DNA of 64,000 bases from Thermoproteota archaeon (GTDB lineage Archaea; Korarchaeota; Korarchaeia; Korarchaeales; JAOZGB01): contig JAVCBU010000011.1 in NCBI GenBank assembly GCA_037917685.1, forward strand, positions 1 to 64,000. Direction: 5' to 3'. Positions 9,058 through 48,262 of the stretch are shown piece after piece. A program made the position numbers and the translations under genes. The stretch's first letter is position 1. Every line of letters begins with the position of its first letter. Under the pieces are notes generated by a model. The model worked only from the letters and a program-made list of their open reading frames with translations, was not told the DNA's origin and searched no databases.

Positions 9058-9058
9058 G

Positions 9059-32015: not shown

Positions 32016-32981
32016 TCATCCCCGATTATTGGATGCCTTTCCAAGTAGGAAATATAGAATACTCCATGTAGCTATGTGATAAATACTTGGATGAAAGCTT
32101 GGGAATGTTTCTATGTTATACACCCTAGCCCCCTCCCCAGCCTTCATCAAGGTTTGGAGCAGCTGCCATGTTGAGATTCCAAGAGGCTCGTCCAAACCCT
32201 CTGACATAGACAGATCAAGAACGTCAAAGTCCACATTAACCATGAAGGTGTCAGTTCCATCTTTCACCCGCTCCAACGCCTCCTCTAAAACATTCTTATA
32301 GCCCTTATTAACTATGTCCCTGTACGTGTATATCTTGGATCCATGCTTCCTGTACCATTCTATCTGGCTTTTCATGTTCCTCGGGCCTCTAAGCCCTATC
32401 AGTATGAAATTCCTCATGTCCAGGTTCTTCAGCTCTGAAGCTCTCCTCACCCAGCATGCCAAGCTATATTTTGTACCGGAGTGCTCATGGAGATTATCGC
32501 CGTGAGCGTCGAGATGTAGAACTCCTATCTTCCCCTGGGAAGAGAGTGATTCTGCAGCTGCAAATGGGTGTCCCGTAACTACAATAGGGGCGCAGCCGGC
32601 TGAAAGTACCTTTTCGACTTTTTCCCTATTCTTTCTGATTGCATATAGGTAGTCATCATCTGATGAGACTGGTGATAATAACTTTATGTCTCCTAAATCT
32701 CCGAGCCTCACTTTTTCCAGGACGTCGATGTCGTATTCTGGCAGATAGCTTCCATATTTCAGGGAGTGAACCCTTAGGTTGTGAGTATGAAGAATTGAAG
32801 GCTTCAATGATCTTCCGGCAGGGGGAGTCGTCCTCTGCAAGGGTACACCTATTATTACTGCGTCGTACCCGTCTAAGTCCTCTTCTGAGATGCTTGGAAC
32901 CCCCAGGAATGTTGGAGTTCCAGGGTGGATTGTGGGAACCTTGAAGACTGTGAACTCTTCCATTGACTTTCTAGGTTTCAA
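32016..32981 (-). CDS. Ureohydrolase (agmatinase/arginase) family protein
   Basis: TFLGVP, GDLGD, HLDAHGD, IGLRG, DFDVLD, EPLG. Confidence 0.82.
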   Translation of the reverse strand: MKPRKSMEEFTVFKVPTIHPGTPTFLGVPSISEEDLDGYDAVIIGVPLQRTTPPAGRSLKPSILHTHNLRVHSLKYGSYLPEYDIDVLEKVRLGDLGDIKLLSPVSSDDDYLYAIRKNREKVEKVLSAGCAPIVVTGHPFAAAESLSSQGKIGVLHLDAHGDNLHEHSGTKYSLACWVRRASELKNLDMRNFILIGLRGPRNMKSQIEWYRKHGSKIYTYRDIVNKGYKNVLEEALERVKDGTDTFMVNVDFDVLDLSMSEGLDEPLGISTWQLLQTLMKAGEGARVYNIETFPSFHPSIYHIATWSILYFLLGKASNNRG

Positions 32982-32993
32982 CCTTGTGGCACC

Positions 32994-33833
32994 CTATAAA
33001 GGTAGCACACCTTTACCTGTCACTCTAAGATATATCCCAGCTATTAATAGAAGTATCGAGAACGCTAGGAACAAGTAGTCTCCAGCTGACATTTTGAATG
33101 TTTTATAGAAGGTTCTCTTAGGTACGGCTCCAAAGGCCTTTAGCTCCATCGCTATGGTCATGTCATAGGCGCTCTTTAGAGAGGTGTCTATGAGGGGGAC
33201 GAATAGTGTGATGTATTTTCTACCCTTCTCTATGATCCCTCCCTTATCCAGGGCAACCGCTCTTGACAGGTATGCCTCCTTTATTGTCCCGAAGGCTCCG
33301 ACGAATGATGGAAGGAATCTAAAGGACGAAACAACCATGTAGGGATACTTGTATGAGCCTCCAAGCCTCTGGAAGTCTTCCCCTATGCAGTTTGCAAGGT
33401 CGATCATGTCTGTGCATAGGACAAAGAACATGCTGGCCGTGACTGCTACGGCTATCCTTAGGGCCATAGCTGTCCCATAAATCAGTCCCTCAACGGTGTA
33501 GGCTCCTTTCCCACCTATGAGGGGCACCCATTTCGGTATCAAGGTGAATATAACCCTTCCCCCTTTATCGTAGAAGAAGGGCCAAGTTAGAATTATGAAG
33601 CCGAGCAAGGCTGGATATGTTACTAGAAGATACCTACCGAGGCTTTTATGCACCCTTGCCACAACTGCGAGGACCCAGCTTAATAGTACTAGTGGAATTG
33701 TATAGATGTAGTGGGTCACTAGGATTGGCAGGATTATCATTACAATCCACCAGATCAGCTTGACCTTTGGATTTAGCTTGTGTATGGGGCTTTTCATCTT
33801 ACCAGATTCAAGGATTTCGAGAAGCAGGGACAA
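32994..33833 (-). CDS. ecfT: ECF transporter T component
   Basis: HKLNP.VKL, FRFLP, AYLSR, AMELKAF. Confidence 0.88.
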   Translation of the reverse strand: MSLLLEILESGKMKSPIHKLNPKVKLIWWIVMIILPILVTHYIYTIPLVLLSWVLAVVARVHKSLGRYLLVTYPALLGFIILTWPFFYDKGGRVIFTLIPKWVPLIGGKGAYTVEGLIYGTAMALRIAVAVTASMFFVLCTDMIDLANCIGEDFQRLGGSYKYPYMVVSSFRFLPSFVGAFGTIKEAYLSRAVALDKGGIIEKGRKYITLFVPLIDTSLKSAYDMTIAMELKAFGAVPKRTFYKTFKMSAGDYLFLAFSILLLIAGIYLRVTGKGVLPL

Positions 33834-33837
33834 AATA

Positions 33838-34662
33838 TCACCTCCTACATGCCTGATATATCTTTTCAGCTAGATCTTCAACTCTAAGTGAGGGTTTTCC
33901 GCCCAGCAGGTTTCTAAGCCTGAAATCTATAAGCACGACGTCTGGAGGCTTAATATATGCTTCCCTTAGTGTTTCAATGTCGTACATTACTTGCTCAGTT
34001 GGGCCGTCGAGCAGGATACGACCGTTCTTCATAACTATTACTCGCTTTGCGAACATTGAGACGAGCTTCATGTTATGGGTCACCATTATGATTGTGTGTC
34101 CCTCCTTGTTTAGCCTATCCATGAACTCTACAAGTTTGACACACTCCTTCCAGTCCTGTCCCGTCGTGGGTTCATCTACAACAAGCACTTCAGGCTTCAT
34201 GGCAAGGATTGATGCAACAGCCAGCCTCTGTCTTAAACCCTTACCAAGCATGAAGGGTGGAGTGTCGACGTATTCTGATAGTTCAAGTTCTTCAAGGACA
34301 TGTTTAACTATTTCTTTGATCTCGTCCTCGGGGAACCCTAGGTTTCGGGGCCCGAATGCTACTTCGTCGTATACGCTGTCTGAGTATATTTGGTGATCAG
34401 GGTTTTGAAAGACATATCCTACTTTTCTAGACAGCTCGTACGTGGACGCTTTGGAGGTGTCAACCCCGTAGACGTAGACCTTCCCCCTTGTCGGCTTGAG
34501 GAGCCCATTAAAGTGTTTAACCAGTGTTGTCTTGCCTGAGCCGTTCTGCCCTATGATAGCTATGAACTCTCCACGTTTGATGGTTAAGTCTACGCCGCGA
34601 AGGGCTTCTATGCCGCCTGGGTAGACGTGCCATAATCCCTCAACCTTTATTATCTCCTCCAC
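33838..34662 (-). CDS. ecfA: ECF transporter ATPase
   Basis: GQNGSGKTT, FQNPDHQ, DEPTTGQD, VTHN. Confidence 0.9.
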   Translation of the reverse strand: MEEIIKVEGLWHVYPGGIEALRGVDLTIKRGEFIAIIGQNGSGKTTLVKHFNGLLKPTRGKVYVYGVDTSKASTYELSRKVGYVFQNPDHQIYSDSVYDEVAFGPRNLGFPEDEIKEIVKHVLEELELSEYVDTPPFMLGKGLRQRLAVASILAMKPEVLVVDEPTTGQDWKECVKLVEFMDRLNKEGHTIIMVTHNMKLVSMFAKRVIVMKNGRILLDGPTEQVMYDIETLREAYIKPPDVVLIDFRLRNLLGGKPSLRVEDLAEKIYQACRR

Positions 34663-34664
34663 TT

Positions 34665-35516
34665 CTATTCACCCCTAACTATCTCGCTGAACACATCAAC
34701 TGCTTCATCCACTGTTAGCGGAAACTTATCTATGTTAATCCCACGTTTCTTAAGCAGATATGCTATCTGAGTTGCCTGAGGAGAATCTACACCTATCCTC
34801 TTGAGCAGCTCAACGTCTGAAAGTACTTCTCTGGTTGGGCCGCTCTCTATGATTCTCCCCCCATCCATAACAATAACCCTGTCCGAGAATACTGAGAGAA
34901 GCTCTGTTTTATGTTCAACCATAACTATCGTCTTACCCTCGGCTTTGAGTTTTCTAACAGTTTTGAAAACCTCCTCTGTTCCTATAGGATCCAGCTCTGA
35001 CGTTGGCTCGTCCAGTATCATTATCTCCGGCAGCATTGCAAGCGAAGCTGCTACGGCAACTTTTTGCTTTTGCCCCCCGGACATTAGGAAGGGGTGTCTG
35101 CTCCTGAACTCTTCAAGGCCTACAACTTTAAGTGCATAGTCTATTCTCCTCCTGATCTCATCCCTCGGCAAACCAAGGTTTTCCGGGCCGAATGCTATCT
35201 CCCTCTCCACATCGGGCATTAGCAGCTGTGACTCTGGATCCTGCATGGTCATCCCCACCTTCTGGGATATCTCTGAAACCTCGTGTTCCGTTGTTTTCAT
35301 GCCGGCAGTGATGACTTCCCCTGTAAAGTCTCCCCTAAGGATGTTTGGGACAATACCAACCATTGTTAAGCATAAAGTTGTCTTCCCGGCACCCGTGGGA
35401 CCTATAATACCGAGAAATTCCCCCCTGTAAACTGTTAGGTTTATGTTTAGCAGTGAGGGTTTCTCTGCTCTCCTATACTTGAACGTTACATTTCTAATTT
35501 CTATGGCTGGCTCCAT
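34665..35516 (-). CDS. ecfA: ECF transporter ATPase
   Basis: GPTGAGKTT, QDPESQ, MSGGQKQ, LDEPTSELD, VEH. Confidence 0.9.
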   Translation of the reverse strand: MEPAIEIRNVTFKYRRAEKPSLLNINLTVYRGEFLGIIGPTGAGKTTLCLTMVGIVPNILRGDFTGEVITAGMKTTEHEVSEISQKVGMTMQDPESQLLMPDVEREIAFGPENLGLPRDEIRRRIDYALKVVGLEEFRSRHPFLMSGGQKQKVAVAASLAMLPEIMILDEPTSELDPIGTEEVFKTVRKLKAEGKTIVMVEHKTELLSVFSDRVIVMDGGRIIESGPTREVLSDVELLKRIGVDSPQATQIAYLLKKRGINIDKFPLTVDEAVDVFSEIVRGE

Positions 35517-35715: not shown

Positions 35716-36234
35716 ATGGCAAAATTCACAACTCTAGATGTGGCACTCACAATCATAGGCGCCGTAATCTACGGGCTAGGGTGCTTCGCTACAATGGGGA
35801 TAGCAATATCATTTATGACGGTTAGGCCAGCATCATGCATAGCATGTGTATGGGGCATATTATTCGGCCCATGGGTCGGAGGACTCGCGGCCGGCATAGG
35901 GAACACGTTCATATCTGATGTCCTCGCCGGATGGCTAGGCGTCGGAGGAGTTGGAGGATTCGTTGGAAACTTCGTAATGGGCTGGATGCCAGGCCAGTTC
36001 GTGAAAGACCCTGAAGACATGGTTCAGGTCATATTCTGGTCAGGCCTCTCAGCTGTCGTCTGCGCTGTAATAGTCGCGGCATGGATATCATTCCTCGGAT
36101 ACGCCCCGTTCATGACGCTATTCATCCTTATCACCGCGAGTGACCTGACAGCCAACGTAATCGGCACGCCAATACTGATCAAACTGTTATATGAGAGGGT
36201 AAGGAGGAGAGGACTGTACTGGAGGGAACGCTAA
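35716..36234 (+). CDS. ECF transporter S-component
   Basis: IGAVIY, VRPA, LFGPWVG..AAGIGN..SD; divergent from the ecfAAT genes. Confidence 0.82.
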   Translation: MAKFTTLDVALTIIGAVIYGLGCFATMGIAISFMTVRPASCIACVWGILFGPWVGGLAAGIGNTFISDVLAGWLGVGGVGGFVGNFVMGWMPGQFVKDPEDMVQVIFWSGLSAVVCAVIVAAWISFLGYAPFMTLFILITASDLTANVIGTPILIKLLYERVRRRGLYWRER

Positions 36235-36271: not shown

Positions 36272-37660
36272 TTACCCTAAACATCTATCCTCATCCCACC
36301 TGGCTATCCTGTCCCTATAGTTGAAGGGTATAAGCCTGGCTTTGCCTCTGGGCTGGAGTTCACCCCTTTCATAAATAATGCTTCCGGAGACGATCGTGTA
36401 TACAATCCTTCCTTTAAGGGTTAAACCCTCATAGGGCGTCCAGTCAGCCTTCTGGTGGAGCATGTCCAAGTCTAGCTTGTACTCGTCTTTTAGGTTGATA
36501 ATTGTTAGGTCAGCGTCTGCCCCTGGGATAATTGCCCCTTTCAACGGGTATAGGCGATATATTCTGGCAGCTCCAGTGGAGACAGCATCTACAAATCTTT
36601 TGAGGGTTAGTCTCCCCTTGAGGTATCCTTCACTTAACATTAGAGGGAGTCTGGTCTCAACGCCTGGCACTCCCGCCTCAACATTCCATATGTCGTCCCA
36701 GCACTTCTCTTTCTCCTCCCTTAGGGGTGCATAGTGGTCTGAGGTTACTATGTCTACTGTTCCATCCGCAAGAGCTTTCCACAGCATGGCCCTGTCTTCT
36801 TTTGTCCCAAGCGGTGGGTTTATCGCCAGGAAAGGCCCCATATCCTTAACGTCCTCCCGTGTGAATATAAGGTAGTGAGGGCATGTTTCAACAGTGACAC
36901 CCTTCTGTTTGGCTGCTACTATATCTGGCAGAACCCTGGCGGTTGAAAGGTGAAATATGTGCAGCCTCACGTTCATGTAGGTGGCAAGGAGTATAGCTCT
37001 TTTTACAGCTTCAACCTGAGCTATGTCAGGTCTTGCCTGCCAGTGAGCGTCGGGGTCTCTCCTTCCAGCATCAACCAGTAGTTTCTGGGCTTCTCTTCTG
37101 ATCCACTCGTCCTCAGCGTGGACCGTGGCTATTAGGTTCTTTCCTGAAAGCGTTAGGAAGGATTTGTACATGAAGCCTGTATCTACGTATGGTGTTCCGT
37201 CACAGTTTGCCATCATGTGTTTATAGGATAGGGCGCCCATCCTCGCAAGCTTTTCAACCTCCCCTATATCCCTATCTCTCCATAACACTGTGTGTAGGCA
37301 AAAGTCGCACCGGGCGAGCCTCAGGCCTACTTCTACTTTCCGCCTGAAGGCTTCAACTAGGCTTTCCCTCTCCCCTGCCCTTGCAAAGTCTGCTACTAGT
37401 GTTGTTCCTCCAGCTATGGCTGCAAGGCTTCCTGTTTTAAAGTCTCCCCTGCGGGCAACCCTGGGATGTATGTGTACGTGGCTGTCGAACCCGCCGGGTA
37501 TCACCAGAAGCCCCGTCGCGTCAATATTCTCTGCAGCCTCCCCTATCGCTGCGTTTCCGCCTATGGATACAATCTTACCGTCTTTGATGCCTATTGATGC
37601 CTTAACCACGGCACCCCCAGGGAGGTAGACGTTGCCATTTCTAACTGCGAGGTCGAACAT
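36272..37660 (-). CDS. Cyclic amidohydrolase (dihydropyrimidinase/allantoinase/dihydroorotase family)
   Basis: DSHVH, GGTT, SYKHMM (carbamylated Lys position), HAED, HIFHLS, ETCPHYL, NPPL, SDH.P. Confidence 0.88.
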   Translation of the reverse strand: MFDLAVRNGNVYLPGGAVVKASIGIKDGKIVSIGGNAAIGEAAENIDATGLLVIPGGFDSHVHIHPRVARRGDFKTGSLAAIAGGTTLVADFARAGERESLVEAFRRKVEVGLRLARCDFCLHTVLWRDRDIGEVEKLARMGALSYKHMMANCDGTPYVDTGFMYKSFLTLSGKNLIATVHAEDEWIRREAQKLLVDAGRRDPDAHWQARPDIAQVEAVKRAILLATYMNVRLHIFHLSTARVLPDIVAAKQKGVTVETCPHYLIFTREDVKDMGPFLAINPPLGTKEDRAMLWKALADGTVDIVTSDHYAPLREEKEKCWDDIWNVEAGVPGVETRLPLMLSEGYLKGRLTLKRFVDAVSTGAARIYRLYPLKGAIIPGADADLTIINLKDEYKLDLDMLHQKADWTPYEGLTLKGRIVYTIVSGSIIYERGELQPRGKARLIPFNYRDRIARWDEDRCLG

Positions 37661-37666
37661 AAAGCA

Positions 37667-39583
37667 TCAACCTGGAAGTTTCCCTAGGCTTTCAAGCTCA
37701 TCTGCCACGGCTTTAAGACCTAGCTGCTCGAACTTTTCCCTGGTAACCATTCCCGTCTTGGGATCCCATCCTCTAAGCTTGTAATACTCGTCCAGCATTT
37801 GGTCGAGCTCGACAACCTGACCTTTGGCTGGCCCCTCTGGTGATGGTACCTTGGTGAATCTCTCAGGGAGTCTGTCATCCTTCCTGGCCAGTCCAAGCCT
37901 CTGATTATACGCTCTCTCAAGATTGTAGATTCTCTCACCTGCAAGCCTTATGTCTTCAGCTGACACCTGGATGCCCACGGCGAGGCTGAAGCCCATTGCT
38001 ATTTCAGGGTAGTAGACCGCCCCGCTTTCAAGTGGAAGTAGGGTTCCGGTACTCTTGCACAGCAGCAGGCTATCGCATAGGGCGGCCAGTTCTTCGCAGT
38101 CTTTTACAAGGAAGGGTTTATACTTTGGGTTTAGCCTCTCTCCAAGCTCTGGCAGATACTTCCTCCCATATCTGACGATGATCTTGCTTTCCCATATACT
38201 CTCGTCTAGAATTGGAAAGGCCTTTAGGTGGTCGGCGCCCCTGGTGGCGGTGACATGGGCCAGCCCCATGGATTTCTGGGCCCTGCCGTCCTGTGCTGGA
38301 ATTTCCATCCCCTTAACCGCCATTACATATTTATCTGAGCCTCTTCCGATCTTCTTTGACGCCCTGTGGCTTCCCTCCGCAAGTAGGTTGCCGAATCCCT
38401 TTCTGTAGGCTATCATCTCTATGAGTTTGATCATTGTGTCGTAGTCTCCCCAGTAAAGCTCTAGGCCACCAGTATCCTCCCTTGTTATTATTCCCTTCTC
38501 GTAGCATTCCATAGCCCATGCTATCGTCCCACCGGTCGAGATGGTGTCCATTCCATACTCGTTGCATAGGTAATTCATGTATATTATTGCCTCGAGATCT
38601 CCCACATAACATCTTGGCCCGAGGCTTGAGATTGTCTCATATTCAGGGTTCTTATATATTCCTTTAAACTGGCCCTTTCTTATGAGAACAGGCTTCTCGC
38701 ACAGGCACAGACAGGCGTAGCATCCTCTATCCTTAATCCGATACTCAGATCTAAGCCTTTCCCCACCAATTCTCTCAACATCTGGGAACATTCCACGCTG
38801 GAAGTTCTTGACAGGCCATCTTGCAATCTCATTCATGAGTTCTGCAAGTATTGGGGTCCCATACTTTCGACGCCTCATAATGTGCGGGTCTCTTAAGTAC
38901 TCCTCTGAAAGCTTATCCACCAGCTCCTGGAACTTGTCTGGGTAGGCGACTCTCACATCCTTTGAACCTCTGACAACTATTCCCTTAACCCTCTTAGATC
39001 CGAGGACAGCTCCTATCCCCGCTCTAGCTGCGACCCTAGTGTCATGGAATATTCCGGAATATCTTACAAGGTTCTCGCCAGCCGGGCCTATAACGGCGGC
39101 CTGGCAGGACCAGTCTCCAACCTCCTCCTTTAGGGCTTTTTCAGCCTCGGATGTCTTGAGACCCCATAACCCGTTAGCGTCTCTAATCTCAACATTATCT
39201 TCATCTATGTAGATGTAGACTGGTTTTGAGGATCTACCACTGATAATTATCATGTCATACCCTGCAAGTTTAAGCTCCGGCCCTAGGAACCCGCAGCAAG
39301 AGGAGTCTCCATATACACCAGTAAGAGGCGACCTAGCCCCAACTTGGAACCTCCCGGACTGGGGCCAAGATGTGCCTGTGAATGGCCCCACTGCCAGAAT
39401 GAAGCGGTTTTCAGGGCTGAAAGGCTTAGTATCCGGGCTTGTCTCATCCCATAGGGTTTTAGCTATGAAGCCTGCTCCCCCTATGAATTTAAGAGCAGTC
39501 TCACCTGGCAAAGGCTGGGTGAAAGTTTTCATTCTGTCAAGATCGACCCTTAGGATTCTACCTGCATACGCGTAAAATTTCAT
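37667..39583 (-). CDS. Tungsten AOR-family protein (AOR-3)
   Basis: RSPLTG, IGPAGENLV, CYACLCLC, PEYET, QDGRAQKSMGL, RGADH. Confidence 0.92.
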   Translation of the reverse strand: MKFYAYAGRILRVDLDRMKTFTQPLPGETALKFIGGAGFIAKTLWDETSPDTKPFSPENRFILAVGPFTGTSWPQSGRFQVGARSPLTGVYGDSSCCGFLGPELKLAGYDMIIISGRSSKPVYIYIDEDNVEIRDANGLWGLKTSEAEKALKEEVGDWSCQAAVIGPAGENLVRYSGIFHDTRVAARAGIGAVLGSKRVKGIVVRGSKDVRVAYPDKFQELVDKLSEEYLRDPHIMRRRKYGTPILAELMNEIARWPVKNFQRGMFPDVERIGGERLRSEYRIKDRGCYACLCLCEKPVLIRKGQFKGIYKNPEYETISSLGPRCYVGDLEAIIYMNYLCNEYGMDTISTGGTIAWAMECYEKGIITREDTGGLELYWGDYDTMIKLIEMIAYRKGFGNLLAEGSHRASKKIGRGSDKYVMAVKGMEIPAQDGRAQKSMGLAHVTATRGADHLKAFPILDESIWESKIIVRYGRKYLPELGERLNPKYKPFLVKDCEELAALCDSLLLCKSTGTLLPLESGAVYYPEIAMGFSLAVGIQVSAEDIRLAGERIYNLERAYNQRLGLARKDDRLPERFTKVPSPEGPAKGQVVELDQMLDEYYKLRGWDPKTGMVTREKFEQLGLKAVADELESLGKLPG

Positions 39584-40029
39584 GGAGATTCACCTCTTAA
39601 CATTCTTGTAAGATACTCTATTTGCTTTCTTTGCGAAACCTGGCTTGGCGTCACTATTTTTAAAGCCTGGTTTGGACATTTCTCAACGCACACTCCGCAG
39701 AGATCACAGATGTACGCGTAGCCATCCGGGTGTATGTCTATGGCTCCTATTATGCAGGCCTCGACACAAAGTCCACAGCCTATACATCTCTCCGCGATCA
39801 CCTTCACTATCTCGTCTTCTTCGATGGCGTTTACAGGGCATACCCTGGCGCATTGAGGGCTGTAGCAGTGGACGCATGCTATAGGTAGGTCTATTAGCTC
39901 CCTTGTCCTGACAACTCTGATCCTTGACTTCCTCGGGTTATAAACTTTCTCCTTCTCAAAGGAGCATACTATTTCGCAGATCCTACAGCCCGAGCATTGA
40001 AGCGGATCAGCATAAATAAACTTCTTCAT
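39580..40029 (-). CDS. 4Fe-4S dicluster subunit
   Basis: CSGCRICEIVC, CVHC...C..VCP, CIGCGLCVEAC, CDLCGVCVEKCP. Confidence 0.9.
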   Translation of the reverse strand: MKKFIYADPLQCSGCRICEIVCSFEKEKVYNPRKSRIRVVRTRELIDLPIACVHCYSPQCARVCPVNAIEEDEIVKVIAERCIGCGLCVEACIIGAIDIHPDGYAYICDLCGVCVEKCPNQALKIVTPSQVSQRKQIEYLTRMLRGESP

Positions 40030-40033
40030 AATA

Positions 40034-41125
40034 CTACACCTCCACGATCATTCTGATGGCATGTACGGGGCAAACTGAGCTGCAAAGTCCGCACCCCTCG
40101 CATCTTTCAACAATATTGGAGGCCCTGCCGTCAACCATTTCCATGGCTTGGTATGGGCAAACCTTGACACATAGCCCGCAACCCGTACACTTCTCCTGGA
40201 TCACACTTGACTTCCAGGAGCGGTAGTCAGGTTTGCCAGTAATATTTCTAGCTGCTGATCCCACAGCCTCTGAAACACTTGAATATCCTAGAGACTCCAA
40301 TTCCTGCTCGAATTCGTTTACTATACGGTCTAGCTTCTCTACGCCGTGGATCAGCGCTGCTGTAAGCACACCGAAAGCATCGGCCCCTGCCATAACCATC
40401 TCAACGGCATCTCTTCCGTTCGAAATCCCTCCTCCACCTATGATTGGATTCTTAAAGCTCCTGTATAATTCGCTTACAACCCTGAGGGCGATCGGCTTCA
40501 ACGCGGGCCCGCTTACATATCCATAACCGTACTTTGCCCCGAGCACCGGCCTCCTATTCTCTATATCAAGAAGCAGGCCAGGGCCTATAGTATTGATTCC
40601 GGATAGAACCTTACAACCTGCCTCAACAGCCGCCTTCACATGGGACATAGGGGTTAGCGGGCCCACCTTGACAGCCAATGGCACGCTGACTTTCTCAAGT
40701 GCTGCTTTGACCGTATGAGTAATCCATTTTTCACCTATGGTTGAGGGGATCGGAATCTCTATAAGGTCTGCACCCGCATCCTGAAGTATCCCGGCCATCC
40801 AGGCTGTCTTTTCAGGATCCATGTCTAGCACACTGACAAATACTGGCTTGTTGGACTCAGCCTTTAGCTGAGGAAGCTCACGGGAAATCATGTCTATTGA
40901 CGGGGCTGACCAATCATAGTTTATCAGGCCCCCGCTGAAATGGTACATGTTAGGCTTTGGTGTATCCATGGCTCTTGCTTTGACTGTTTTTATTGTTATC
41001 GCTCCGATCTTAAAGTTTAACAGTCTTTTAGCCGCCGTACAGTCTCTTGTGAGAGGTCCTGGAAAAACTACAAGGGGATATTCAAGGGTTAACCCCCTTT
41101 CTATGGTTACGGTCAGATCTACCAT
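40034..41125 (-). CDS. PreA/dihydroorotate dehydrogenase-like FMN protein with C-terminal 2x[4Fe-4S] domain
   Basis: IKT, GLIN, INT, SGPALKP, GGGG, then CTGCGLCVKVCP and CEGCGLCSSVCP. Confidence 0.85.
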   Translation of the reverse strand: MVDLTVTIERGLTLEYPLVVFPGPLTRDCTAAKRLLNFKIGAITIKTVKARAMDTPKPNMYHFSGGLINYDWSAPSIDMISRELPQLKAESNKPVFVSVLDMDPEKTAWMAGILQDAGADLIEIPIPSTIGEKWITHTVKAALEKVSVPLAVKVGPLTPMSHVKAAVEAGCKVLSGINTIGPGLLLDIENRRPVLGAKYGYGYVSGPALKPIALRVVSELYRSFKNPIIGGGGISNGRDAVEMVMAGADAFGVLTAALIHGVEKLDRIVNEFEQELESLGYSSVSEAVGSAARNITGKPDYRSWKSSVIQEKCTGCGLCVKVCPYQAMEMVDGRASNIVERCEGCGLCSSVCPVHAIRMIVEV

Positions 41126-41128
41126 CTA

Positions 41129-42988
41129 CTATTCACCCTTAACCTTTATCTTGAGTTCTACAAGCTTTTCCTCTGGGACTATTCCGTCACTGGTCCATCC
41201 TCTAAGCTTGTAGTACTCGTCAAGCATGGGGTCAAGCTCTACAGTCTGGCCTTTAAGGCCACCCTCTGGTAGAGGCTCTTCTAGAAGCCTCCTTGGAAGC
41301 TGGTCGTCCTTCCTTGTAATCCCGTGGAGATTATTGTAGTGCCTCTCCAAGTTTATTATCCTCTCACCTATCCTCATAATCTTTTCAACAGTAAACTCTA
41401 CACCTGTTAGATGGCTTAGCGCCTCTGCCAGTAGCTCCGCTGATAATGTGTAGAAGGTAAAGAAGGTATACTTGCAGGCGATTACAGAGTCTAGTACAGC
41501 CCCAAGATCCTCGTGATACTTAACCATAGGCGCTTTTCCTCTTATTGAGAGGGGGTCAACTGAGTCAGGGCTTCCATAGAGTTTCTCCCCAAGCTCCGGG
41601 GGGAAGCCTATAAGTTCAAAGTTTACTAGGGCCCTTAGATGGTCTGCTCCTCTACTTGCAACTGCAAGCCCCAGGCCAAATCCCTTTGCCCCCCTAACCT
41701 CTACCGCCGGAAGCTCCATACCTTTAACATGCATAGCACATCTTGAGGCTTCCTCTCCAAACTTTCTTGAGGCTCTTGCACAGCCCTCAGCCAGCACGTT
41801 CCCGAATCCTTCACGCCTAGCTATCATCTTTATGAGTCTTATCATGACTTCGCTGTCACCCCACAGGATGTCTATACCCCCTGTATCCTCCCTTGTTATT
41901 ATTCCCTTCTCGTAGCACTCCATAGCCCACGCTATCGTCCCACCGGTCGAGATGGTGTCGAGGCCAAGGCGATTGCATAGCTCATTCATTTCTATTATTG
42001 AAGCGAGGTCTGAGTTCCAGCAGTTTGAACCGAGGCATACTAGGGTTTCATATTCTGGCCCTTCTCCCCCTACACATTTGGAGCCGCTCACAAACATGGC
42101 ATAGTTACTGCAGTGGATAAGGCATGCAAAGCATGCCCTATCCTTAACCTTGTACCTGGAGTCAAGCTCCTCAGCAGATAATAGCTCTCCCTCGGGGAAT
42201 ATTGAGGTCTGCCTATTCCCAGTTGAGATTCTGCCTGCCAGTAGCGCCCTGTCAACTATTGATGGGGTTCCATACCTGGAGAAATACTCGTAGCCTGGTG
42301 CCTCCATTATGAGCTCTGAGGCTTTGTCGCATACCTCCTCAAACTTTCGAATGTTGGCAGCTTCAACCATGCCTTCACCTGAGACTGCTACCGCCTTAAG
42401 CCTTTTAGACCCCATTACAGCTCCTACACCTGTTCTAGCAGCCAGCCGGTACTTCTCATTTACTATACCAGCATACCTCACCAGGTTTTCCCCTGCCGGC
42501 CCTATACATGCAACCCTAACGCCTGGGAGGGTGGACTCCTTTATTCTATCTTCGGTTTCCCATGTGTCTAGGCCCCACAGGTTAGAGGCGTCTCTTATCT
42601 CAGCCTCACCGTCAAATATCATTATGTACACAGGCTTTTCAGCTCTCCCCACTATGACGATGGCGTCAAAACCTGCATACTTCAGCTCTGGTCCAAAGTA
42701 ACCGCCTGAGTTGGCGTCTCCAAGTATACCTGTAAGGGGTGACTTTGCTGTTACGGAGTAGCGGCCTGATCCCGGGAACCTTGTCCCGACAAGCGGGCCT
42801 ACCGAGAATATTAGGTAGTTATCTGGCGAATATGGATCGACATCCGGGTTTGTGGTTTCGTATAGGATTCTTGATCCTATTCCCCTGCCTCCAAGGTAGA
42901 GTCTAAGGTTTTCCCGACTGGATTCCTGCAGTACAACTTTCCCCTTGGAGAGGTCTATAAATAGGGTTTTCCCAGTCCAGCCGTACAT
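41129..42988 (-). CDS. Tungsten AOR-family protein (AOR-4)
   Basis: KSPLTG, IGPAGENLV, CFACLIHC, GPEYET, RGADH, EYYKLRGW. Confidence 0.92.
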   Translation of the reverse strand: MYGWTGKTLFIDLSKGKVVLQESSRENLRLYLGGRGIGSRILYETTNPDVDPYSPDNYLIFSVGPLVGTRFPGSGRYSVTAKSPLTGILGDANSGGYFGPELKYAGFDAIVIVGRAEKPVYIMIFDGEAEIRDASNLWGLDTWETEDRIKESTLPGVRVACIGPAGENLVRYAGIVNEKYRLAARTGVGAVMGSKRLKAVAVSGEGMVEAANIRKFEEVCDKASELIMEAPGYEYFSRYGTPSIVDRALLAGRISTGNRQTSIFPEGELLSAEELDSRYKVKDRACFACLIHCSNYAMFVSGSKCVGGEGPEYETLVCLGSNCWNSDLASIIEMNELCNRLGLDTISTGGTIAWAMECYEKGIITREDTGGIDILWGDSEVMIRLIKMIARREGFGNVLAEGCARASRKFGEEASRCAMHVKGMELPAVEVRGAKGFGLGLAVASRGADHLRALVNFELIGFPPELGEKLYGSPDSVDPLSIRGKAPMVKYHEDLGAVLDSVIACKYTFFTFYTLSAELLAEALSHLTGVEFTVEKIMRIGERIINLERHYNNLHGITRKDDQLPRRLLEEPLPEGGLKGQTVELDPMLDEYYKLRGWTSDGIVPEEKLVELKIKVKGE

Positions 42989-43450
42989 TTAAACACCCAG
43001 CTGGATATCTCCCGCTATCTCAATCATGGTGTTCCACAGCTTTGTTTTTCTATGATCCCAGCTGTCGGTAACTTTTAGTTTTTTAACAGGGCATTTTTCA
43101 ATGCACACCCCGCAAAGGTCGCACTTAAAGGCTTTCCCATTATAATAGGCTACTGCTCCGAACGGGCACGCCACTATGCAGAGCCCACAGCCAATGCACT
43201 TTTCCTGGCTTAGCTGTACGATGTTGTTCTCTCTGTACAGTGCGTCTGTCGGACATACGTCTATGCAGGGGGCTTTATTGCAGTTCTTACATGTAGTGAT
43301 GTAATCCCCCTCTTTGAGTCTTACAACCGTTATAGCTGAGGATGTAGGCTTATATACGCCGAGGTTCTCGGCAGTACACGCCAGCATACATATTTTGCAG
43401 CCTACACATTCTAGCGGGCTTATTGAAATGTAGACCGGCATTTCAACCAC
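42989..43450 (-). CDS. 4Fe-4S dicluster subunit
   Basis: CVGCKICMLAC, CKNC..APC..VCP, CIGCGLCIVACP, CDLCGVCIEKCP. Confidence 0.9.
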   Translation of the reverse strand: MVEMPVYISISPLECVGCKICMLACTAENLGVYKPTSSAITVVRLKEGDYITTCKNCNKAPCIDVCPTDALYRENNIVQLSQEKCIGCGLCIVACPFGAVAYYNGKAFKCDLCGVCIEKCPVKKLKVTDSWDHRKTKLWNTMIEIAGDIQLGV

Positions 43451-44846
43451 TCATCCAGGGTGGCTCCCAGGGCGGTGAGACTGGTGTTTCCTCAGCCTTC
43501 TCTCTGAACTTGTATGCGTTCTCCTCAATCTTCCTGTACGCCTCTTCCTCATCAACCTTTAATATTCTTCCTTTCTCAGAGACGAGTTCCCCGTCTATGA
43601 AAACGTACTCCACGTCGAATCCCCGGACATAATTTGCAACGAGGCTAAGCTTGTCCTCTACAGGCTGAAATCTGGGCTTATCTATGTCGATAACTATTAT
43701 ATCCGCCTTCTTGCCAGGCTCGATGCTTCCTATCTCATGGTCTAACCCCAAAGCCTTAGCTCCGTTTATCGTGGCCATCTCTAAAGCCTGCATTGGTGTT
43801 ATTAGGCTCCTGTCTAGATGGTGTACTCTCAACAGGTATGTTGATATCATCATAAACTCGAACATGTCTGACCAGCCGCCGTCTAGCCCGTAGGCAACAT
43901 TAACTCCTCTACGTAATAGTTCTACGACGGGTGCAATGCCGTGTCCGCCGCGCATGTTACTTTTTACGTTGAAGGCCACGTTTATCCCTGTCCTCTGTAT
44001 TGTGTTTAGCTCGTCCTCATATACGTAGATGCAGTGCGCAACTATCACGTCAGGCTTTAAGAAGCCGAGGCTGTGGAGGAAGTCTATAGATCCCTTCTTC
44101 CCATACCATTTCTTTATTAGGTTAACCTCGTATGGGCTTTGGGCCACGTGCAGTTGGATGCCTGCTTTGTACTCATCAGACAGCTCTCTAACTTTCCTGA
44201 AATACTCTGGTGAGCTTGAAAATGGAGCGTGAACCCCGAACATTCCTCTAATCCTTGAATCTGGCTTAGAATTCCACTTCCTGATAAACTCTAGGTTCGC
44301 TTCAAGCCCCTTATAGCCATGCTCCACCCCCAGCCTTTGGCTTGCCTCGAACGAGATTACAGCCCTAATCCCAACCTCCATCACCGCCTTCGCCTCCCAG
44401 TCCAGGGCTTCCGGAATATCGTTTGGAACCTCCATCAGATCCGAGGTTGTTGTAACACCAGCCCGAACCATGTCCATTGACATGGCTAGAGCTCCATAGT
44501 AGGCTTCTTCGCGTGTGGCTGTCTCCTCAAACCTTGGCCAGTAAACCCTTGTAAGTAGATCTCCGAACTTATCGACAGTAGCCATACCAGGTGGAGGATA
44601 GGTCACCCTCAGGTTTCTTAAATGATAAACCGGCATGTGATTATGCACGTTAACCATGCCCGGCATTATTATCTTGTTAGAAGCATCTATGTCAAGGTCA
44701 GCCTCACCATAAAGCTCAGAAGCCTTATCCGACTCCCCAACGAAAGTTATCCTTCCATCTTCAACGATTACCGTCCCGTCCTCGATTAGCCTTCTATTGG
44801 CGTCCATAGTAATTATAAAACCATGTCTTAGAGCTATATCAGCCAT
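43443..44846 (-). CDS. SsnA/MtaD/guanine deaminase-like amidohydrolase
   Basis: PGMVNVHNH, GVTT, GVHAPFS, LHVAQ, AHC, SNM, GLDG, MATINGAKALG. Confidence 0.85.
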   Translation of the reverse strand: MADIALRHGFIITMDANRRLIEDGTVIVEDGRITFVGESDKASELYGEADLDIDASNKIIMPGMVNVHNHMPVYHLRNLRVTYPPPGMATVDKFGDLLTRVYWPRFEETATREEAYYGALAMSMDMVRAGVTTTSDLMEVPNDIPEALDWEAKAVMEVGIRAVISFEASQRLGVEHGYKGLEANLEFIRKWNSKPDSRIRGMFGVHAPFSSSPEYFRKVRELSDEYKAGIQLHVAQSPYEVNLIKKWYGKKGSIDFLHSLGFLKPDVIVAHCIYVYEDELNTIQRTGINVAFNVKSNMRGGHGIAPVVELLRRGVNVAYGLDGGWSDMFEFMMISTYLLRVHHLDRSLITPMQALEMATINGAKALGLDHEIGSIEPGKKADIIVIDIDKPRFQPVEDKLSLVANYVRGFDVEYVFIDGELVSEKGRILKVDEEEAYRKIEENAYKFREKAEETPVSPPWEPPWMSG

Positions 44847-45414: not shown

Positions 45415-46170
45415 TTGTTAAGAGATTGGATGTGGATTCCCAGGTGGCTTGGTGAATGTTATTCGAAGCTTTACTTAAAGTTCGGTCAAGAACCCTTCAC
45501 CTTCTCCGAAGCTAGGGATTTCCTATCATTTAGTGAGAACAAGCTTTCCGTCGCATTCAGTAAGCTCCATTCTAAAAGAATTCTACTAGTTTTTAAACGG
45601 GGAAAACCTAGGCTTTATAGACTTTTAGATCCTGAAAACTTCATCTTTATGGCCTCAGGGGCCGTGAAAAACGTTGAGAGGGTTGCTTCTGAAAAATATC
45701 TTAAGCTTATACTTGATTGTCTGAGGGCTCTTTTAAAAACCATAGAGTTGGAGTCCTTCGCCGTTTACGGATCTGTGGCTCGTGGATCAGCATCCAACTA
45801 CAGCGATGTTGACATACTCATAGTCTCGGATTCGCTGAAGGGAAGCTTAGCCTCCAGAATAGATAAGTTATATCATTTGGAGGATGAACTTGAGGAGCTT
45901 AAATGGCTTAGGAAGCATGGGATATATACGTCACTCAGCTTCTACCCCTTAAGGAGGGATGAGGCTCAGAGACTGCCGCTGCTTTTCCTTGATTTAACGG
46001 AAGAGGCGGCAATTATTTACGATAGGAATGGATTCCTTGAGGCGGTGTTGTTGGAGTTTAGAGGTAGGCTGTTAAGGCAGGGAGCGAAACGGGTGATCCT
46101 AGATAGGAAGCATTGGTACTGGGACCTAAAGCCAGACTACAAGTTTGGTGAAAAGGTTGAGATTGCTTAA
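45415..46170 (+). CDS. MNT nucleotidyltransferase with N-terminal winged-HTH-like extension
   Basis: FTFSEA..L..., YRLLDP in the N-terminal part; YGSVARG....SDVDILIV; WYWDLKP.YK.GE..EI. Confidence 0.8.
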   Translation: MLRDWMWIPRWLGECYSKLYLKFGQEPFTFSEARDFLSFSENKLSVAFSKLHSKRILLVFKRGKPRLYRLLDPENFIFMASGAVKNVERVASEKYLKLILDCLRALLKTIELESFAVYGSVARGSASNYSDVDILIVSDSLKGSLASRIDKLYHLEDELEELKWLRKHGIYTSLSFYPLRRDEAQRLPLLFLDLTEEAAIIYDRNGFLEAVLLEFRGRLLRQGAKRVILDRKHWYWDLKPDYKFGEKVEIA

Positions 46171-46585
46171 AATCGCTAAGTCATACCTCCGACAGGCCGA
46201 AGCTAGGATTGAAGATGCCAAAGACGCCCTTCTGGAAAGCAATCACCCTTACGCGGTAAGGCTAAGTCAAGAATGTGTTGAACTGTCCCTAAAGGCTGTT
46301 CTAAAAGCTGTCGGAATAGAATATCCTAAAGTACACGACGTTTCAGATGTCCTAGATGCGGTTAAGGACAGGTTTCCCCAATGGTTTAGAGCTGAAATAG
46401 GGTTTTTACGTGAATCAAGTAAAGCTCTTGCTAAAAAGAGGGAAATAAGTTTTTACGGAGGGGAGGAGGCTTTCCTATCCCCAGACGAGGTTATAAGCAA
46501 GGAGGATGCGATAGACGCTGTACAAAGGGCTACAAAAACACTCAAGTTATGCAAGAAGCTTATCAAAGAAATCAAGAGGATATAG
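46145..46585 (+). CDS. HEPN domain protein
   Basis: RLSQECVELSLKAVL..VGIEYPKVHDV, KREISFYG. Confidence 0.88.
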   Translation: MVKRLRLLKIAKSYLRQAEARIEDAKDALLESNHPYAVRLSQECVELSLKAVLKAVGIEYPKVHDVSDVLDAVKDRFPQWFRAEIGFLRESSKALAKKREISFYGGEEAFLSPDEVISKEDAIDAVQRATKTLKLCKKLIKEIKRI

Positions 46586-46780: not shown

Positions 46781-47302
46781 ATGTGTGTTGGTGGTGTGCT
46801 TTGGAGGTGGAAAAGAGTAAGTCCTATAGAGCTCTTGATACTCCTACAACTCAGAAGAGAGCCACTCTACGGCTACGAGATCATCAAGAAGCTCAAAGAA
46901 GAGTTTAAGGGTGTATGGGAGCCTAAAACAGGCACGATTTACCCGGCTTTGAGAAGGCTGGAGGGTAGAGGCCTAATAAGGACTGAGGTTAGGGATGAGC
47001 GTGAATATTATCATATAACACCGCGGGGCGAGGAAGCCCTAAGGGAAAGCTTACTTGCCCTTGAAGAGAGCCTTAGCTTTGCAGGTAGATATTTCAGATG
47101 CCTGTTCAGGCATGTACCCCCACACCCTAGGATTTTAAGAGTGATATCGTCTGGAATGGACCTTCCTATGCTCGACATCGAGAGCCTTACAGGCTGGGAT
47201 AGGGAGGCTGTCCTATCCATCCTGAAAAGTATTAGGGAAGTGCTTAAGGCAAGACTGAAGTATGTTGAGAGTAAGATTAGAGAGCTTGAACAGTCACAGT
47301 AA
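46781..47302 (+). CDS. PadR-family transcriptional regulator
   Basis: YGYEIIK, GTIYPALRRLE..GLI, YY.IT..G. Confidence 0.9.
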   Translation: MCVGGVLWRWKRVSPIELLILLQLRREPLYGYEIIKKLKEEFKGVWEPKTGTIYPALRRLEGRGLIRTEVRDEREYYHITPRGEEALRESLLALEESLSFAGRYFRCLFRHVPPHPRILRVISSGMDLPMLDIESLTGWDREAVLSILKSIREVLKARLKYVESKIRELEQSQ

Positions 47303-47319
47303 TAGCGGGGTGTACATGC

Positions 47320-48249
47320 TTGACCGAGGCAATAGAGGCTTATGGGCTTACAAAGTGGTATGGAAAGTTTCTAGCAGTTGATCATATTAGCTTTACGGTC
47401 CCGAAAGGTGAGATTTTCGGGTTTCTGGGGCCGAACGGTGCAGGTAAGACGACAACTGTAAGGATGCTGACGGGAATGTCAAAGCCTTCCGAAGGGACGG
47501 CAAGAATAATGGGCTATGACATACAGGCTGATGCTGTCAAGGCAAAGGAGCATATAGGAGTGGTCCCGGACATATCAAACGTTTATGTTGAACTGACGAC
47601 GTGGGAGAACCTTCTGTTTACCGGAAAGCTCTATGGAATACCGAGACATGAGAGGCGGAAGAGGGCGGAAAGCCTTCTCGAACTCTTTGATCTTGAGGAG
47701 AAAAAGCTTGAGCCTGCGGGTAGGCTGTCGAAGGGGATGAGGAGGCGTCTATGCATCGCGATGGCTCTGATGAACAATTCTTCCATCTTATTCCTAGATG
47801 AGCCTACCACAGGCCTAGATGTTCAAAGCGTTATAAAGATAAGAGACCTCATAAGAACTCTAAACCGGCGGGGTCTAACAATATTTCTAACAACACATAA
47901 CATGCAGGAAGCAAATATAATGTGCGAGCGAATAGCAATAATAAACAAAGGAAGAATAGTGGCTGTAGATACCCCGGAAAAGCTTAAGAACAGGGCGAGA
48001 AGGCTACAGTCGGTGGTAGTATCGTTCGACAAGACCGGAAGATGGGTTGAAGAGCATCTTAGAAAGCTCCAAGAACCGTTAAGGGTTGTAAAGGAGGGAG
48101 ATAAGTATAGAATTTACACATCTGATCCTTCAGAGGTGGTGAGGGCGGTATGCGACTTCGCCTGGAAGCAGGGCTTGAAAATAGTATCTATAAATACGGT
48201 GAAACCCAGCTTGGAAGACATATTCCTAGAACTGACAGAAATAGGGTGA
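47320..48249 (+). CDS. ABC-2 type exporter ATPase
   Basis: [28 protein letters not shown]. Confidence 0.92.
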   Translation: MTEAIEAYGLTKWYGKFLAVDHISFTVPKGEIFGFLGPNGAGKTTTVRMLTGMSKPSEGTARIMGYDIQADAVKAKEHIGVVPDISNVYVELTTWENLLFTGKLYGIPRHERRKRAESLLELFDLEEKKLEPAGRLSKGMRRRLCIAMALMNNSSILFLDEPTTGLDVQSVIKIRDLIRTLNRRGLTIFLTTHNMQEANIMCERIAIINKGRIVAVDTPEKLKNRARRLQSVVVSFDKTGRWVEEHLRKLQEPLRVVKEGDKYRIYTSDPSEVVRAVCDFAWKQGLKIVSINTVKPSLEDIFLELTEIG

Positions 48250-48262
48250 GAGGTGGCAGGCT

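Follow-up and report, generated by a model that had tools for sequence, protein, structure and literature searches.

An archaeal operon of AOR-family enzymes, polyferredoxins and amidohydrolases: a probable module for reductive N-heterocycle degradation

What would an archaeon do with two aldehyde oxidoreductase (AOR)-family enzymes, each coupled to a polyferredoxin, in one operon with two amidohydrolases and a flavo-iron-sulfur (FeS) protein? This arrangement is found at positions 36272-44846 of a 64,000-nucleotide stretch of the genome of a Thermoproteota archaeon of the Korarchaeia (assembly GCA_037917685.1, contig JAVCBU010000011.1). The whole stretch, hereafter the window, is positions 1-64000 of contig C7 of a 22-contig, 1.81-Mb assembly, and the genome is estimated to be 95% complete. 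An original prediction made from these letters had proposed a catabolic module for a purine- or pyrimidine-like heterocycle with a conserved gene order. We found orthologous clusters across archaeal phyla and in Bacillota, as well as homology to a characterised bacterial uric acid cluster, and both parts of that proposal are upheld by the recurring clusters and their uricolytic bacterial homologues. Very probably, the operon encodes a module for reductive N-heterocycle degradation in which the AOR-polyferredoxin pairs serve as dedicated redox partners.

Operon layout and gene families

The seven genes are all on the minus strand and form one operon, with successive gaps of -8, 0, 3, 4, -4 and 6 nt. 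Coordinates and Pfam domains agree with the prediction of a seven-gene operon with gaps of 6 nt or less or overlaps. From g1 to g7, the genes are:

43443-44846, minus strand: g1 (S' in cluster layouts), metal-dependent amidohydrolase of 467 aa, SsnA-related subfamily (Pfam Amidohydro_1, 198 bits)
42989-43450, minus strand: g2, 16-Cys polyferredoxin of 153 aa with four [4Fe-4S] motifs (Pfam Fer4 families)
41129-42988, minus strand: g3, AOR-family pterin enzyme of 619 aa (AFOR_C 444 bits, AFOR_N 272 bits)
40034-41125, minus strand: g4 (P'), 363 aa, FMN domain of the dihydroorotate dehydrogenase/dihydropyrimidine dehydrogenase (DHOD/DPD) fold (DHO_dh, 99 bits) with a C-terminal 2x[4Fe-4S] domain
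39580-40029, minus strand: g5, second 16-Cys polyferredoxin, 149 aa (multiple Pfam 4Fe-4S families)
37667-39583, minus strand: g6, AOR-family pterin enzyme of 638 aa (AFOR_C 450 bits, AFOR_N 246 bits)
36272-37660, minus strand: g7 (H'), cyclic amidohydrolase of 462 aa, hydantoinase/dihydropyrimidinase type (Pfam Amidohydro_1/3)

The order of polyferredoxin then AOR is translationally coupled in both pairs (g2-g3 and g5-g6): g2 shares 8 nt with g1 and runs directly into g3, while g5 is separated from g4 by 4 nt and shares another 4 nt with g6. None of the seven proteins reached the curated cut-off of an NCBIfam equivalog, so that the names SsnA, PreA and hydantoinase are used here as resemblances and not as memberships.

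For g1, the original label of SsnA could not be kept. Its best NCBIfam match was PRK06038 (310 bits, cut-off 609), and it scored 268.3 and 252.6 bits against the two SsnA models NF005540 and TIGR03314, the cut-offs of which are 444 and 455.5, respectively. It is 26% identical to Escherichia coli SsnA and 25% to GuaD. After beta-strand 5, where SsnA has an HxxE motif, g1 reads H-V-A-Q (HxAQ); this Glu is the catalytic residue in deaminases of the amidohydrolase superfamily, and E. coli SsnA keeps it. Gln occupied the position in all 13 of the closest g1 homologues and Glu in all 47 more distant ones. In a FastTree phylogeny of 76 rows comparing SsnA with GuaD/DadD-type deaminases, g1 was basal, on a long branch, to a clade of E. 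coli, clostridial and archaeal SsnA-like proteins (95% SH-like support). The score and the HxAQ motif rule out SsnA proper for g1; a true SsnA is encoded elsewhere in the same genome (C1:114098-115414, 544.5 bits), with another AOR ~3 kb away.

The second amidohydrolase, g7, has the metal ligands of its superfamily. Cyclic amidohydrolases bind a binuclear metal center through HxH, a carboxylated Lys, two His and an Asp, and the g7 motifs DSHVH, SYK, VHAE, FHLS and SDH supply this set and align with the corresponding residues of E. coli HyuA, to which g7 is 31% identical. Its best PDB match was L-hydantoinase 1GKR (242 bits), followed by allantoinase (189 bits) and dihydroorotase (151 bits), and it stayed below the cut-off of the D-hydantoinase/dihydropyrimidinase model TIGR02033 (305.1 bits versus 393.25).

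The flavo-FeS protein g4 had been called PreA-like, a label that its sequence does not bear out. It scored 140 bits against the PreA model NF006183 (cut-off 335), and 145 and 136 bits against the PyrD models NF005574 and NF041011 (cut-offs 269 and 330, respectively), and its best PDB match was DHOD B at 76 bits. It lacks the NLSCPH loop, which carries the catalytic Cys of DPD and DHOD, as well as the STHY loop found in the UacX clade, a group of UacX-type isoxanthine reductases described below, and reads IEIPIPST at that position. A short E-[LVI]-P loop devoid of Cys, Ser or the STHY motif characterizes its subfamily. In the tree, g4 and four metagenomic relatives formed a separate long-branched clade outside the 96-row UacX clade. 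The absent loops and the tree position rule out both PreA and UacX proper.

Both AOR-family domains of g3, g6 and d6 (a third AOR-family gene downstream of the operon) exceeded the Pfam gathering cut-offs (29.8 bits for AFOR_N, PF02730; 27 bits for AFOR_C, PF01314). The best solved relative of g3 was Pyrococcus furiosus AOR (1AOR, 512 bits), which g6 matched at 456 bits; matches to AorB of AorABC (8C0Z) reached 407 and 372 bits, respectively, and neither protein was close to WOR5. The CxxCxxxC motif, the EYE motif, the catalytic His and the fourth Cys are kept in g3, and the alignment of g6 to 1AOR shows matching residues for E313, H448 and all four Cys. Aligned with each other, all three window proteins retain the FeS cysteines and the counterparts of Glu313 and His448 (P. 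furiosus AOR numbering, mapped onto the 1AOR alignment). By sequence, g3 and g6 are classed as AOR sensu stricto-like, and g3, g6 and d6 are putative tungsten rather than molybdenum enzymes, with aldehydes as candidate substrates. A ring reductase like BamB was considered and rejected, since g3 and g6 match BamB (4Z3W) only over their own N-terminal ~420 residues (209 and 238 bits).

All cluster AORs read RGADH before the catalytic His, in place of the G(G/A)CH seen in four solved AORs that oxidise aldehydes and the GGDH of WOR5; going by these alignments, RGADH is a clade signature of the cluster AORs. They fall into three position-specific orthogroups common to Korarchaeia-like, Baldr-, Nitrososphaeria- and Thor-type loci, and a FastTree phylogeny of 71 AORs, built from AORs other than the solved reference sequences, placed g6 as sister to the three orthogroups and g3 just outside them. 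The polyferredoxins have 16 invariant Cys in a 15-sequence alignment (four Cys motifs in ~150 aa), as expected of the AorA/YgfS type, and g2 and g5 are 31%-35% identical to E. coli YgfS and to the N-termini of YgfT/AegA. The window holds a further minus-strand pair of a polyferredoxin (136 aa) and an AOR (641 aa) at 7132-9469; this AOR is 48% identical to g6, is its sister in the AOR tree and adjoins no amidohydrolase or DHOD-like gene.

Conservation of the cluster and its bacterial relatives

The genome encodes 13 AOR-family genes in 1.81 Mb, or ~0.14 expected per 20 kb. We examined 14 regions around g4 homologues in genomes of the same order, and 13 of them had one to three AORs beside the DHOD-like gene, the exception (L028) being a region of canonical NLSCPH-type genes. 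Because of this excess, and because orthologous clusters also recur in other phyla, the arrangement is beyond chance; synteny rules out an accidental adjacency of the seven genes. The commonest layout in these same-order regions was polyferredoxin-AOR-P-polyferredoxin-AOR-H-AOR, in which P is the reductase and H the cyclic amidohydrolase. These clusters were accompanied by an ABC transporter with a Bmp/PnrA-type binding protein and by a divergent amidohydrolase (S) that is a true SsnA (555 bits, cut-off 444). Their reductase lies in a clade with a conserved E-[LF]-S-[TL]-H-Y motif where DPD and DHOD have N-L-S-C-P-H. The window genome itself has a paralogous set at C1:185001-190798, comprising a DHOD-like FeS protein, a polyferredoxin and two AORs and lacking amidohydrolases, the reductase of which (C1:185001-186209) falls inside the UacX clade. 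The same genome thus holds pieces of the sister cluster, with the UacX-clade set at 185-191 kb and the true SsnA at 114 kb of C1.

This sister type (true SsnA, UacX-type reductase and cyclic amidohydrolase) was found in five archaeal groups. A profile of its reductase retrieved 80 archaeal loci, and absences among them are soft because many lie on short contigs. An AOR was present in 33 of the 80: in 20/22 Thor/Asgard-type loci, 8/8 Korarchaeia-like loci and 5/5 Geotherm-, Baldr-, Nitrososphaeria- and Bathyarchaeial loci taken together. None was found in the 12 loci of Hadarchaeota, which have H, S and P, or in the 33 of Desulfurococcales/Thermoprotei, which usually have carbamoyltransferase genes, a carbamate kinase gene, S and P. 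AOR-family enzymes had been proposed as an integral part of the cluster, and this is the case in several archaeal phyla.

The Thor/Asgard-type loci (L089, L095 and others) differ in some details. The amidohydrolase beside their AORs belongs to a 5'-deoxyadenosine/guanine deaminase-like clade and is not SsnA-like; SsnA-like genes (370-383 bits) occur elsewhere in five of eight such genomes. Their clusters are interleaved with a CLC channel, an M24 peptidase and a PfkB kinase.

Bacterial sister loci (L112-L163, from which the archaeal L155-L157 were removed; n = 49) encoded SsnA in 44, an enzyme of the xanthine dehydrogenase (XDH) family in 41, YgeY in 41, YgeX in 27 and an AOR in one. Members from Clostridium, Acidobacteriota and others lie in complete ygeX-ygeY-ssnA-P-hyuA-xdh uricolytic clusters. 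In Maledivibacter halophilus, a cluster of the order ygeX-ygeY-ygeW-yqeA-ssnA-UacX-xdh-hyuA has a YgfS-like polyferredoxin and an AOR at its edge (18375-20659 of L136); this AOR reads RGGCH, the canonical motif, and falls together with the AOR at C1:16341 of the window genome. The E. coli uric acid cluster contains the polyferredoxin proteins YgfS and YgfT, and NCBIfam labels YgfT/AegA as "formate-dependent uric acid utilization" proteins.

In the bacterial pathway, as described by Li et al. (2025, bioRxiv 10.1101/2025.05.19.654654), XdhD reduces urate to 2,8-dioxopurine, which is then dearomatised by the DOPOR enzyme, either YgfK or the ferredoxin-type UacX. SsnA and HyuA subsequently open the rings, and YgeW/YqeA, YgeY and YgeX finish the degradation. 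According to the same authors, YgfK alone gave no product and required SsnA, and UacX works with reduced methyl viologen. The same pathway was reached by Liu et al. (2025, bioRxiv 10.1101/2025.04.24.650524). The bacterial STHY-clade reductase occupies the position of UacX in the clusters set out by Li et al. Anaerobic reductive degradation of a purine-like N-heterocycle is well supported because the bacterial sister-type homologues sit in complete uricolytic clusters, and the predicted homology of the window cluster to the trio of SsnA, DPD-like reductase and HyuA was borne out.

The window's own cluster type was followed by a profile scan with the HxAQ subfamily of g1, which retrieved 15 loci. 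S' and P' were adjacent in 12 of these, H' was present in 10, an arginase-family gene in nine, an AOR in eight and an XDH-family gene in four. Window-type clusters occur in Hadarchaeota, Bathyarchaeia and Bacillota. Orthologues of g4 beside S' were 36%-49% identical (12/15 loci), those of g7 40%-49% and those of the arginase-family protein, which is encoded within the operon in Hadarchaeota, 38%-46%. Orthologues of g6 (59%-63%) were found in-operon in Hadarchaeota, Hecatella and Bathyarchaeia loci, and those of g5 (45%-55%) upstream of a g6-type AOR in L197, L198, L203 and L209. The Hadarchaeum layout is (Bmp) S'-P'-polyferredoxin-AOR-Arg-H', where Arg is the arginase-family gene and the AOR is 59%-60% identical to g6. 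One Bathyarchaeia locus (L208) reads S'-AOR (g3-type, 54%)-P'-AOR (g6-type, 61%), in the order of the window. In two Bacillota metagenome-assembled genomes (MAGs), a fused Se-XDH-like gene (935 and 943 aa) precedes S'-P'-H'(-Arg-YgeY), and a xanthine/uracil permease and a CN hydrolase are encoded near these S'-P'-H' clusters. Bmp/PnrA binding proteins, the xanthine/uracil permease, Se-XDH-like genes and the CN hydrolase give the window-type loci a nucleobase context. The window operon therefore belongs to a cluster type that is conserved across domains and that is a paralogue of the uricolytic core.

Seven genes were confirmed for the operon, but the functional unit extends further downstream than originally drawn, to an arginase-family gene, an energy-coupling factor (ECF) transporter and the third AOR:

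35716-36234, plus strand: putative ECF S component of 172 aa (PF07155, 31.5 bits), convergent with g7
34665-35516, minus strand: EcfA (ABC_tran)
33838-34662, minus strand: EcfA' (ABC_tran)
32994-33833, minus strand: EcfT (CbiQ)
32016-32981, minus strand: arginase-family (ureohydrolase) enzyme of 321 aa (PF00491, 120 bits)
30092-31912, minus strand: d6, third AOR-family gene, 606 aa (AFOR_N 242 bits, AFOR_C 421 bits)

The arginase-family gene belongs to the cluster type, and the ECF transporter probably does as well. The arginase-family protein weakly resembles agmatinase and HutG (56 and 55 bits, far under the cut-offs), and d6 begins 104 nt downstream of its gene. Homologues of the ECF genes, 40%-50% identical, lie beside related clusters in L016, L023 and L196, the last of which also has an in-cluster d6-type AOR (57% identical). 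The S-component candidate had no NCBIfam match, and its membership in the system is suggested by its position only.

Proposed electron supply and competing explanations

Together, the operon, the arginase-family gene, the ECF transporter and the third AOR would make up a reductive ring-degradation pathway for a purine-like N-heterocycle. The reductase g4 would dearomatise the heterocycle by a two-electron reduction, and g1 would open the six-membered ring, pulling the unfavourable g4 step forward. The remaining five-membered or cyclic ureide ring would be opened by g7, and the arginase-family enzyme would take off an amidino/guanidino or ureido group. In the two polyferredoxin-AOR pairs, acting as dedicated redox partners, each AOR would oxidise an aldehyde, either generic or a downstream semialdehyde, and its very low-potential electrons would reach g4, with its FeS domain and FMN, by way of the 4x[4Fe-4S] polyferredoxin.

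Two roles for the AORs, both put forward in the original prediction, are live options, namely (de)hydroxylation of the heterocycle and low-potential electron supply in place of PreT, and we prefer the latter for three reasons. The AORs look catalytically ordinary, with P. furiosus AOR and AorB as solved relatives and the catalytic residues kept; dearomatisation is reported to be thermodynamically hard and ferredoxin- or viologen-dependent; and E. coli has polyferredoxin proteins in the same cluster. A low-potential donor also fits with PydA, for which a ferredoxin-dependent form devoid of the FAD module is established. The whole model, including the aldehyde-driven supply of electrons to g4, a purine-like ring and descent as a diverged paralogue of the 2,8-dioxopurine core, is offered tentatively, as a possible reading of the locus.

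Several points weigh against this proposal. The functions of all archaeal members are predictions from sequence. As g4 has neither the catalytic Cys/Ser loop of DPD and DHOD nor the STHY loop of the UacX clade, it may follow a different chemistry or may, as a flavoprotein, do no more than transfer electrons, and g1 has Gln at the catalytic-Glu position of deaminases and SsnA. A stoichiometric source of aldehyde is only hypothetical, and two or three AOR orthogroups per cluster seem to exceed the apparent need of a simple electron-input module. The AORs are not obligatory partners, given the sister type without an adjacent AOR, in Hadarchaeota (0/12) and Desulfurococcales (0/33). The locus counts are not independent, because many come from short contigs and related genomes.

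The main alternative within the same pathway, itself rather unlikely, is that the AORs are ferredoxin-linked tungsten (de)hydroxylases of the heterocycle that do the job of XdhD/DOPDH (C6 dehydroxylation, C2/C8 hydroxylation), prepare the substrate of g4 and exchange electrons with g4 through the polyferredoxins. One argument for it is positional: beside ssnA-P-hyuA, bacterial sister loci have an XDH-family gene (41/49) and hardly ever an AOR (1/49), and archaea have polyferredoxin-AOR genes there. Bacillota window-type loci have the fused Se-XDH-like gene directly upstream of S'-P'-H'. Similarly, Hadarchaeal and window-type loci combine a three-subunit XDH with an f-AOR, and Bacillota combine a three-subunit XDH with an XdhD-like enzyme. 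Xanthine oxidase-family enzymes act on both aldehydes and aza-heterocycles, and AORs reduce acids reversibly at very low potential, both of which count for this alternative. So do the three position-specific AOR orthogroups found across phyla, two or three of them per cluster, and the RGADH motif, which differs from the G(G/A)CH of the four solved aldehyde oxidisers; yet WOR5, also an aldehyde oxidiser, likewise has Asp before His (GGDH).

The distribution of XDH-family genes bears on the same question. In favor of the alternative, an XDH-family domain (PF02738) was found in 7/18 genomes with AOR clusters versus 14/17 without, a comparison confounded by phylogeny and MAG incompleteness, and eight Thor/Asgard-type genomes showed only one weak 34-bit XDH fragment. 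The absence of xdh, put forward as a check on the operon, did not hold in the window genome: an XDH-family enzyme composed of three subunits, one Mo-binding, one FAD and one 2Fe-2S, is encoded on the same contig at C7:65117-68750 (L192), ~1.1 kb past the window end, and a second XDH-family locus lies at ~C7:92.9-96.7 kb. XDH-family enzymes and AORs also coexist in four Korarchaeia-like genomes and in Hadarchaeal window-type loci, which argues against replacement of one by the other, as do the canonical catalytic residues of the AORs and the fact that their closest solved relatives are broad-range aldehyde oxidoreductases. Literature searches found no report of an AOR-family enzyme acting on a heterocycle, and we know of none.

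A more specific version is less probable still: AOR (de)hydroxylases would replace the Mo/Se XdhD in an internal redox loop with g4, and the window substrate would be a 2-amino heterocycle of the guanine/8-oxoguanine type. Once its ring is opened, such a substrate would leave a guanidino rather than a ureido group, which would explain why an arginase-family enzyme is conserved and why Gln replaces Glu in g1.

A ferredoxin-dependent reductive pyrimidine (Pyd-type) pathway is improbable, despite a scheme that is redox-neutral and gives the AOR an in-pathway aldehyde. Here, g1 would deaminate cytosine, g4 would reduce uracil or thymine, g7 would act as dihydropyrimidinase and, after transamination of beta-alanine, an AOR would oxidise the resulting malonate semialdehyde and return the electrons to g4. 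In its favor, g7 is closest to hydantoinases and dihydropyrimidinases, a class-III aminotransferase gene starts at 63496 in the window, and a ferredoxin-dependent PydA exists, with bacterial Pyd clusters that include beta-alanine aminotransferase and malonic semialdehyde dehydrogenase/reductase (PMC7332683). Nonetheless, g4 lacks the NLSCPH catalytic-Cys loop and stays below the PreA cut-off (140 bits versus 335), g1 does not have the deaminase Glu, beta-ureidopropionase is not in the operon, the conserved arginase-family gene would have no role, and the nearest characterised homologous clusters are uricolytic and not of the Pyd type.

The reading of g4 and g7 as biosynthetic dihydroorotate dehydrogenase and dihydroorotase, with the AORs and the other hydrolase as unrelated neighbours, can practically be set aside: g4 and its C1 paralogue are the only strong DHO_dh-family genes in a genome (95% complete) in which no canonical ~300-aa PyrD was found, and the top NCBIfam matches are a dihydroorotate dehydrogenase model for g4 (145 bits) and dihydroorotase models for g7 (294 bits), but these scores are far under the cut-offs, g4 has no catalytic loop, hydantoinases match g7 better (242 bits) than dihydroorotases do (151 bits), synteny with the AOR, S' and arginase-family genes holds across phyla, and the rest of the de novo route seems absent at that completeness (best PyrB match 134 bits, cut-off 237; PyrE not found, 21.5 bits). 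The organism may provisionally be seen as dependent on pyrimidine salvage, given a genome that is 95% complete.

Genomic surroundings, novelty and known systems

Other genes of nucleobase metabolism lie near the operon and elsewhere in the genome. An adenine deaminase (Adenine_deam_C and Amidohydro_1; 24487-26166, minus strand) is encoded ~10 kb from the operon and is flanked by genes for F420-0:gamma-glutamyl ligase (23079-23831), a luciferase-like, possibly F420-dependent oxidoreductase (26934-27920) and a DUF1152 protein. A luciferase-like gene is also found inside the related cluster of L196, and an F420-type reductase is mentioned for Chloroflexota uricolytic clusters by Li et al. (2025, bioRxiv 10.1101/2025.05.19.654654). 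On contig C6 (311-320 kb, L030), a nucleoside-catabolism island encodes a sugar/nucleoside-type ABC transporter, an OTC-like carbamoyltransferase, a second hydantoinase-like enzyme (365 bits, cut-off 393), a RuBisCO-like protein and ribose-1,5-bisphosphate isomerase. YgeX was not found in the genome. Directly upstream of the operon promoter region is a plus-strand nucleotidyltransferase and HEPN pair (45415-46585), probably toxin-antitoxin-like, after which come genes for a PadR regulator and an ABC-2 exporter (46781-49006). Two further genes lie at the end of the window:

62222-63490: M20 ArgE/DapE-type peptidase, beside the window end
from 63496: class-III aminotransferase, at the window end

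The original prediction knew of no description of such a pathway. This no longer applies to its core, since XdhD, YgfK/UacX, SsnA and HyuA were described in bacteria in 2025, but it stands for the link to AORs and for the paralogous subtype. Literature searches found no description of the archaeal distribution, of the association with AORs and polyferredoxins, or of the subtype with HxAQ, short loop and arginase-family gene, and the main texts of 10.1101/2025.05.19.654654 and 10.1101/2025.04.24.650524 contain no occurrence of archaea or tungsten.

If the proposed pathway is correct, the degradation of purine rings without oxygen that was discovered in gut bacteria in 2025 reaches at least five archaeal lineages and comes in two or more paralogous forms that act on different substrates. 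To our knowledge, all characterised AOR-family members act on aldehydes, acids or benzoyl-CoA. The clusters would place the family in a conserved physiological context, either as a very low-potential electron pump for dearomatisation or as new tungsten (de)hydroxylase chemistry, and would offer candidate functions for some of the many unexplained AOR paralogues of archaea that scavenge peptides and nucleic acids. In these lineages, "dihydroorotate dehydrogenase", "amidohydrolase" and "dihydroorotase" are annotations that probably have to be revised in several thousand cases.

Among known systems, BamB of class II benzoyl-CoA reductase (4Z3W) similarly combines an AOR-family tungsten enzyme with an FeS partner in reductive dearomatisation, although g3 and g6 match it at 209 and 238 bits compared with 512 and 456 bits for P. 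furiosus AOR. A likeness is also seen in AorABC of Aromatoleum aromaticum (8C0Z) and P. furiosus WOR5 (6X1O/6X6U), in which the gene for a small multi-[4Fe-4S] subunit is located immediately upstream of, or coupled to, that of the AOR. In AorABC, the polyferredoxin bridges the tungsten subunit to a flavoprotein subunit. The operon differs from both in that its flavoprotein is a DHOD-fold FMN/FeS protein and not an FAD/NAD subunit, and in that the partner genes encode predicted ring-opening amidohydrolases; furthermore, its AORs have GADH rather than GACH before the catalytic His. Any complex of its proteins is putative.

PydAc of Clostridium chromiireducens is a ferredoxin-dependent dihydropyrimidine dehydrogenase lacking the FAD/NADPH module (PMC7332683). 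As with g4, a DPD-family FMN/FeS reductase without that module is followed by a cyclic amidohydrolase, and PydAc is described there as taking electrons from reduced ferredoxin. However, the same paper places both ferredoxin domains of PydAc in one chain, whereas g4 has only the C-terminal one, lacks the DPD catalytic loop and lies in a purine-type rather than a Pyd context.

The nearest comparison is the bacterial 2,8-dioxopurine pathway. In the window, g1, g4 and g7 are distinct subfamilies (HxAQ, no STHY loop), all under the family cut-offs, a conserved arginase-family member is added, and polyferredoxin-AOR pairs stand where bacteria have XdhD. Nevertheless, both systems combine a DHOD/DPD-fold FeS flavoprotein with two amidohydrolases, one of the SsnA type and one of the hydantoinase type, have YgfS-like polyferredoxins nearby and lie in a context of nucleobase uptake and catabolism, and the sister cluster of the same order has both a true SsnA and a UacX-clade reductase.

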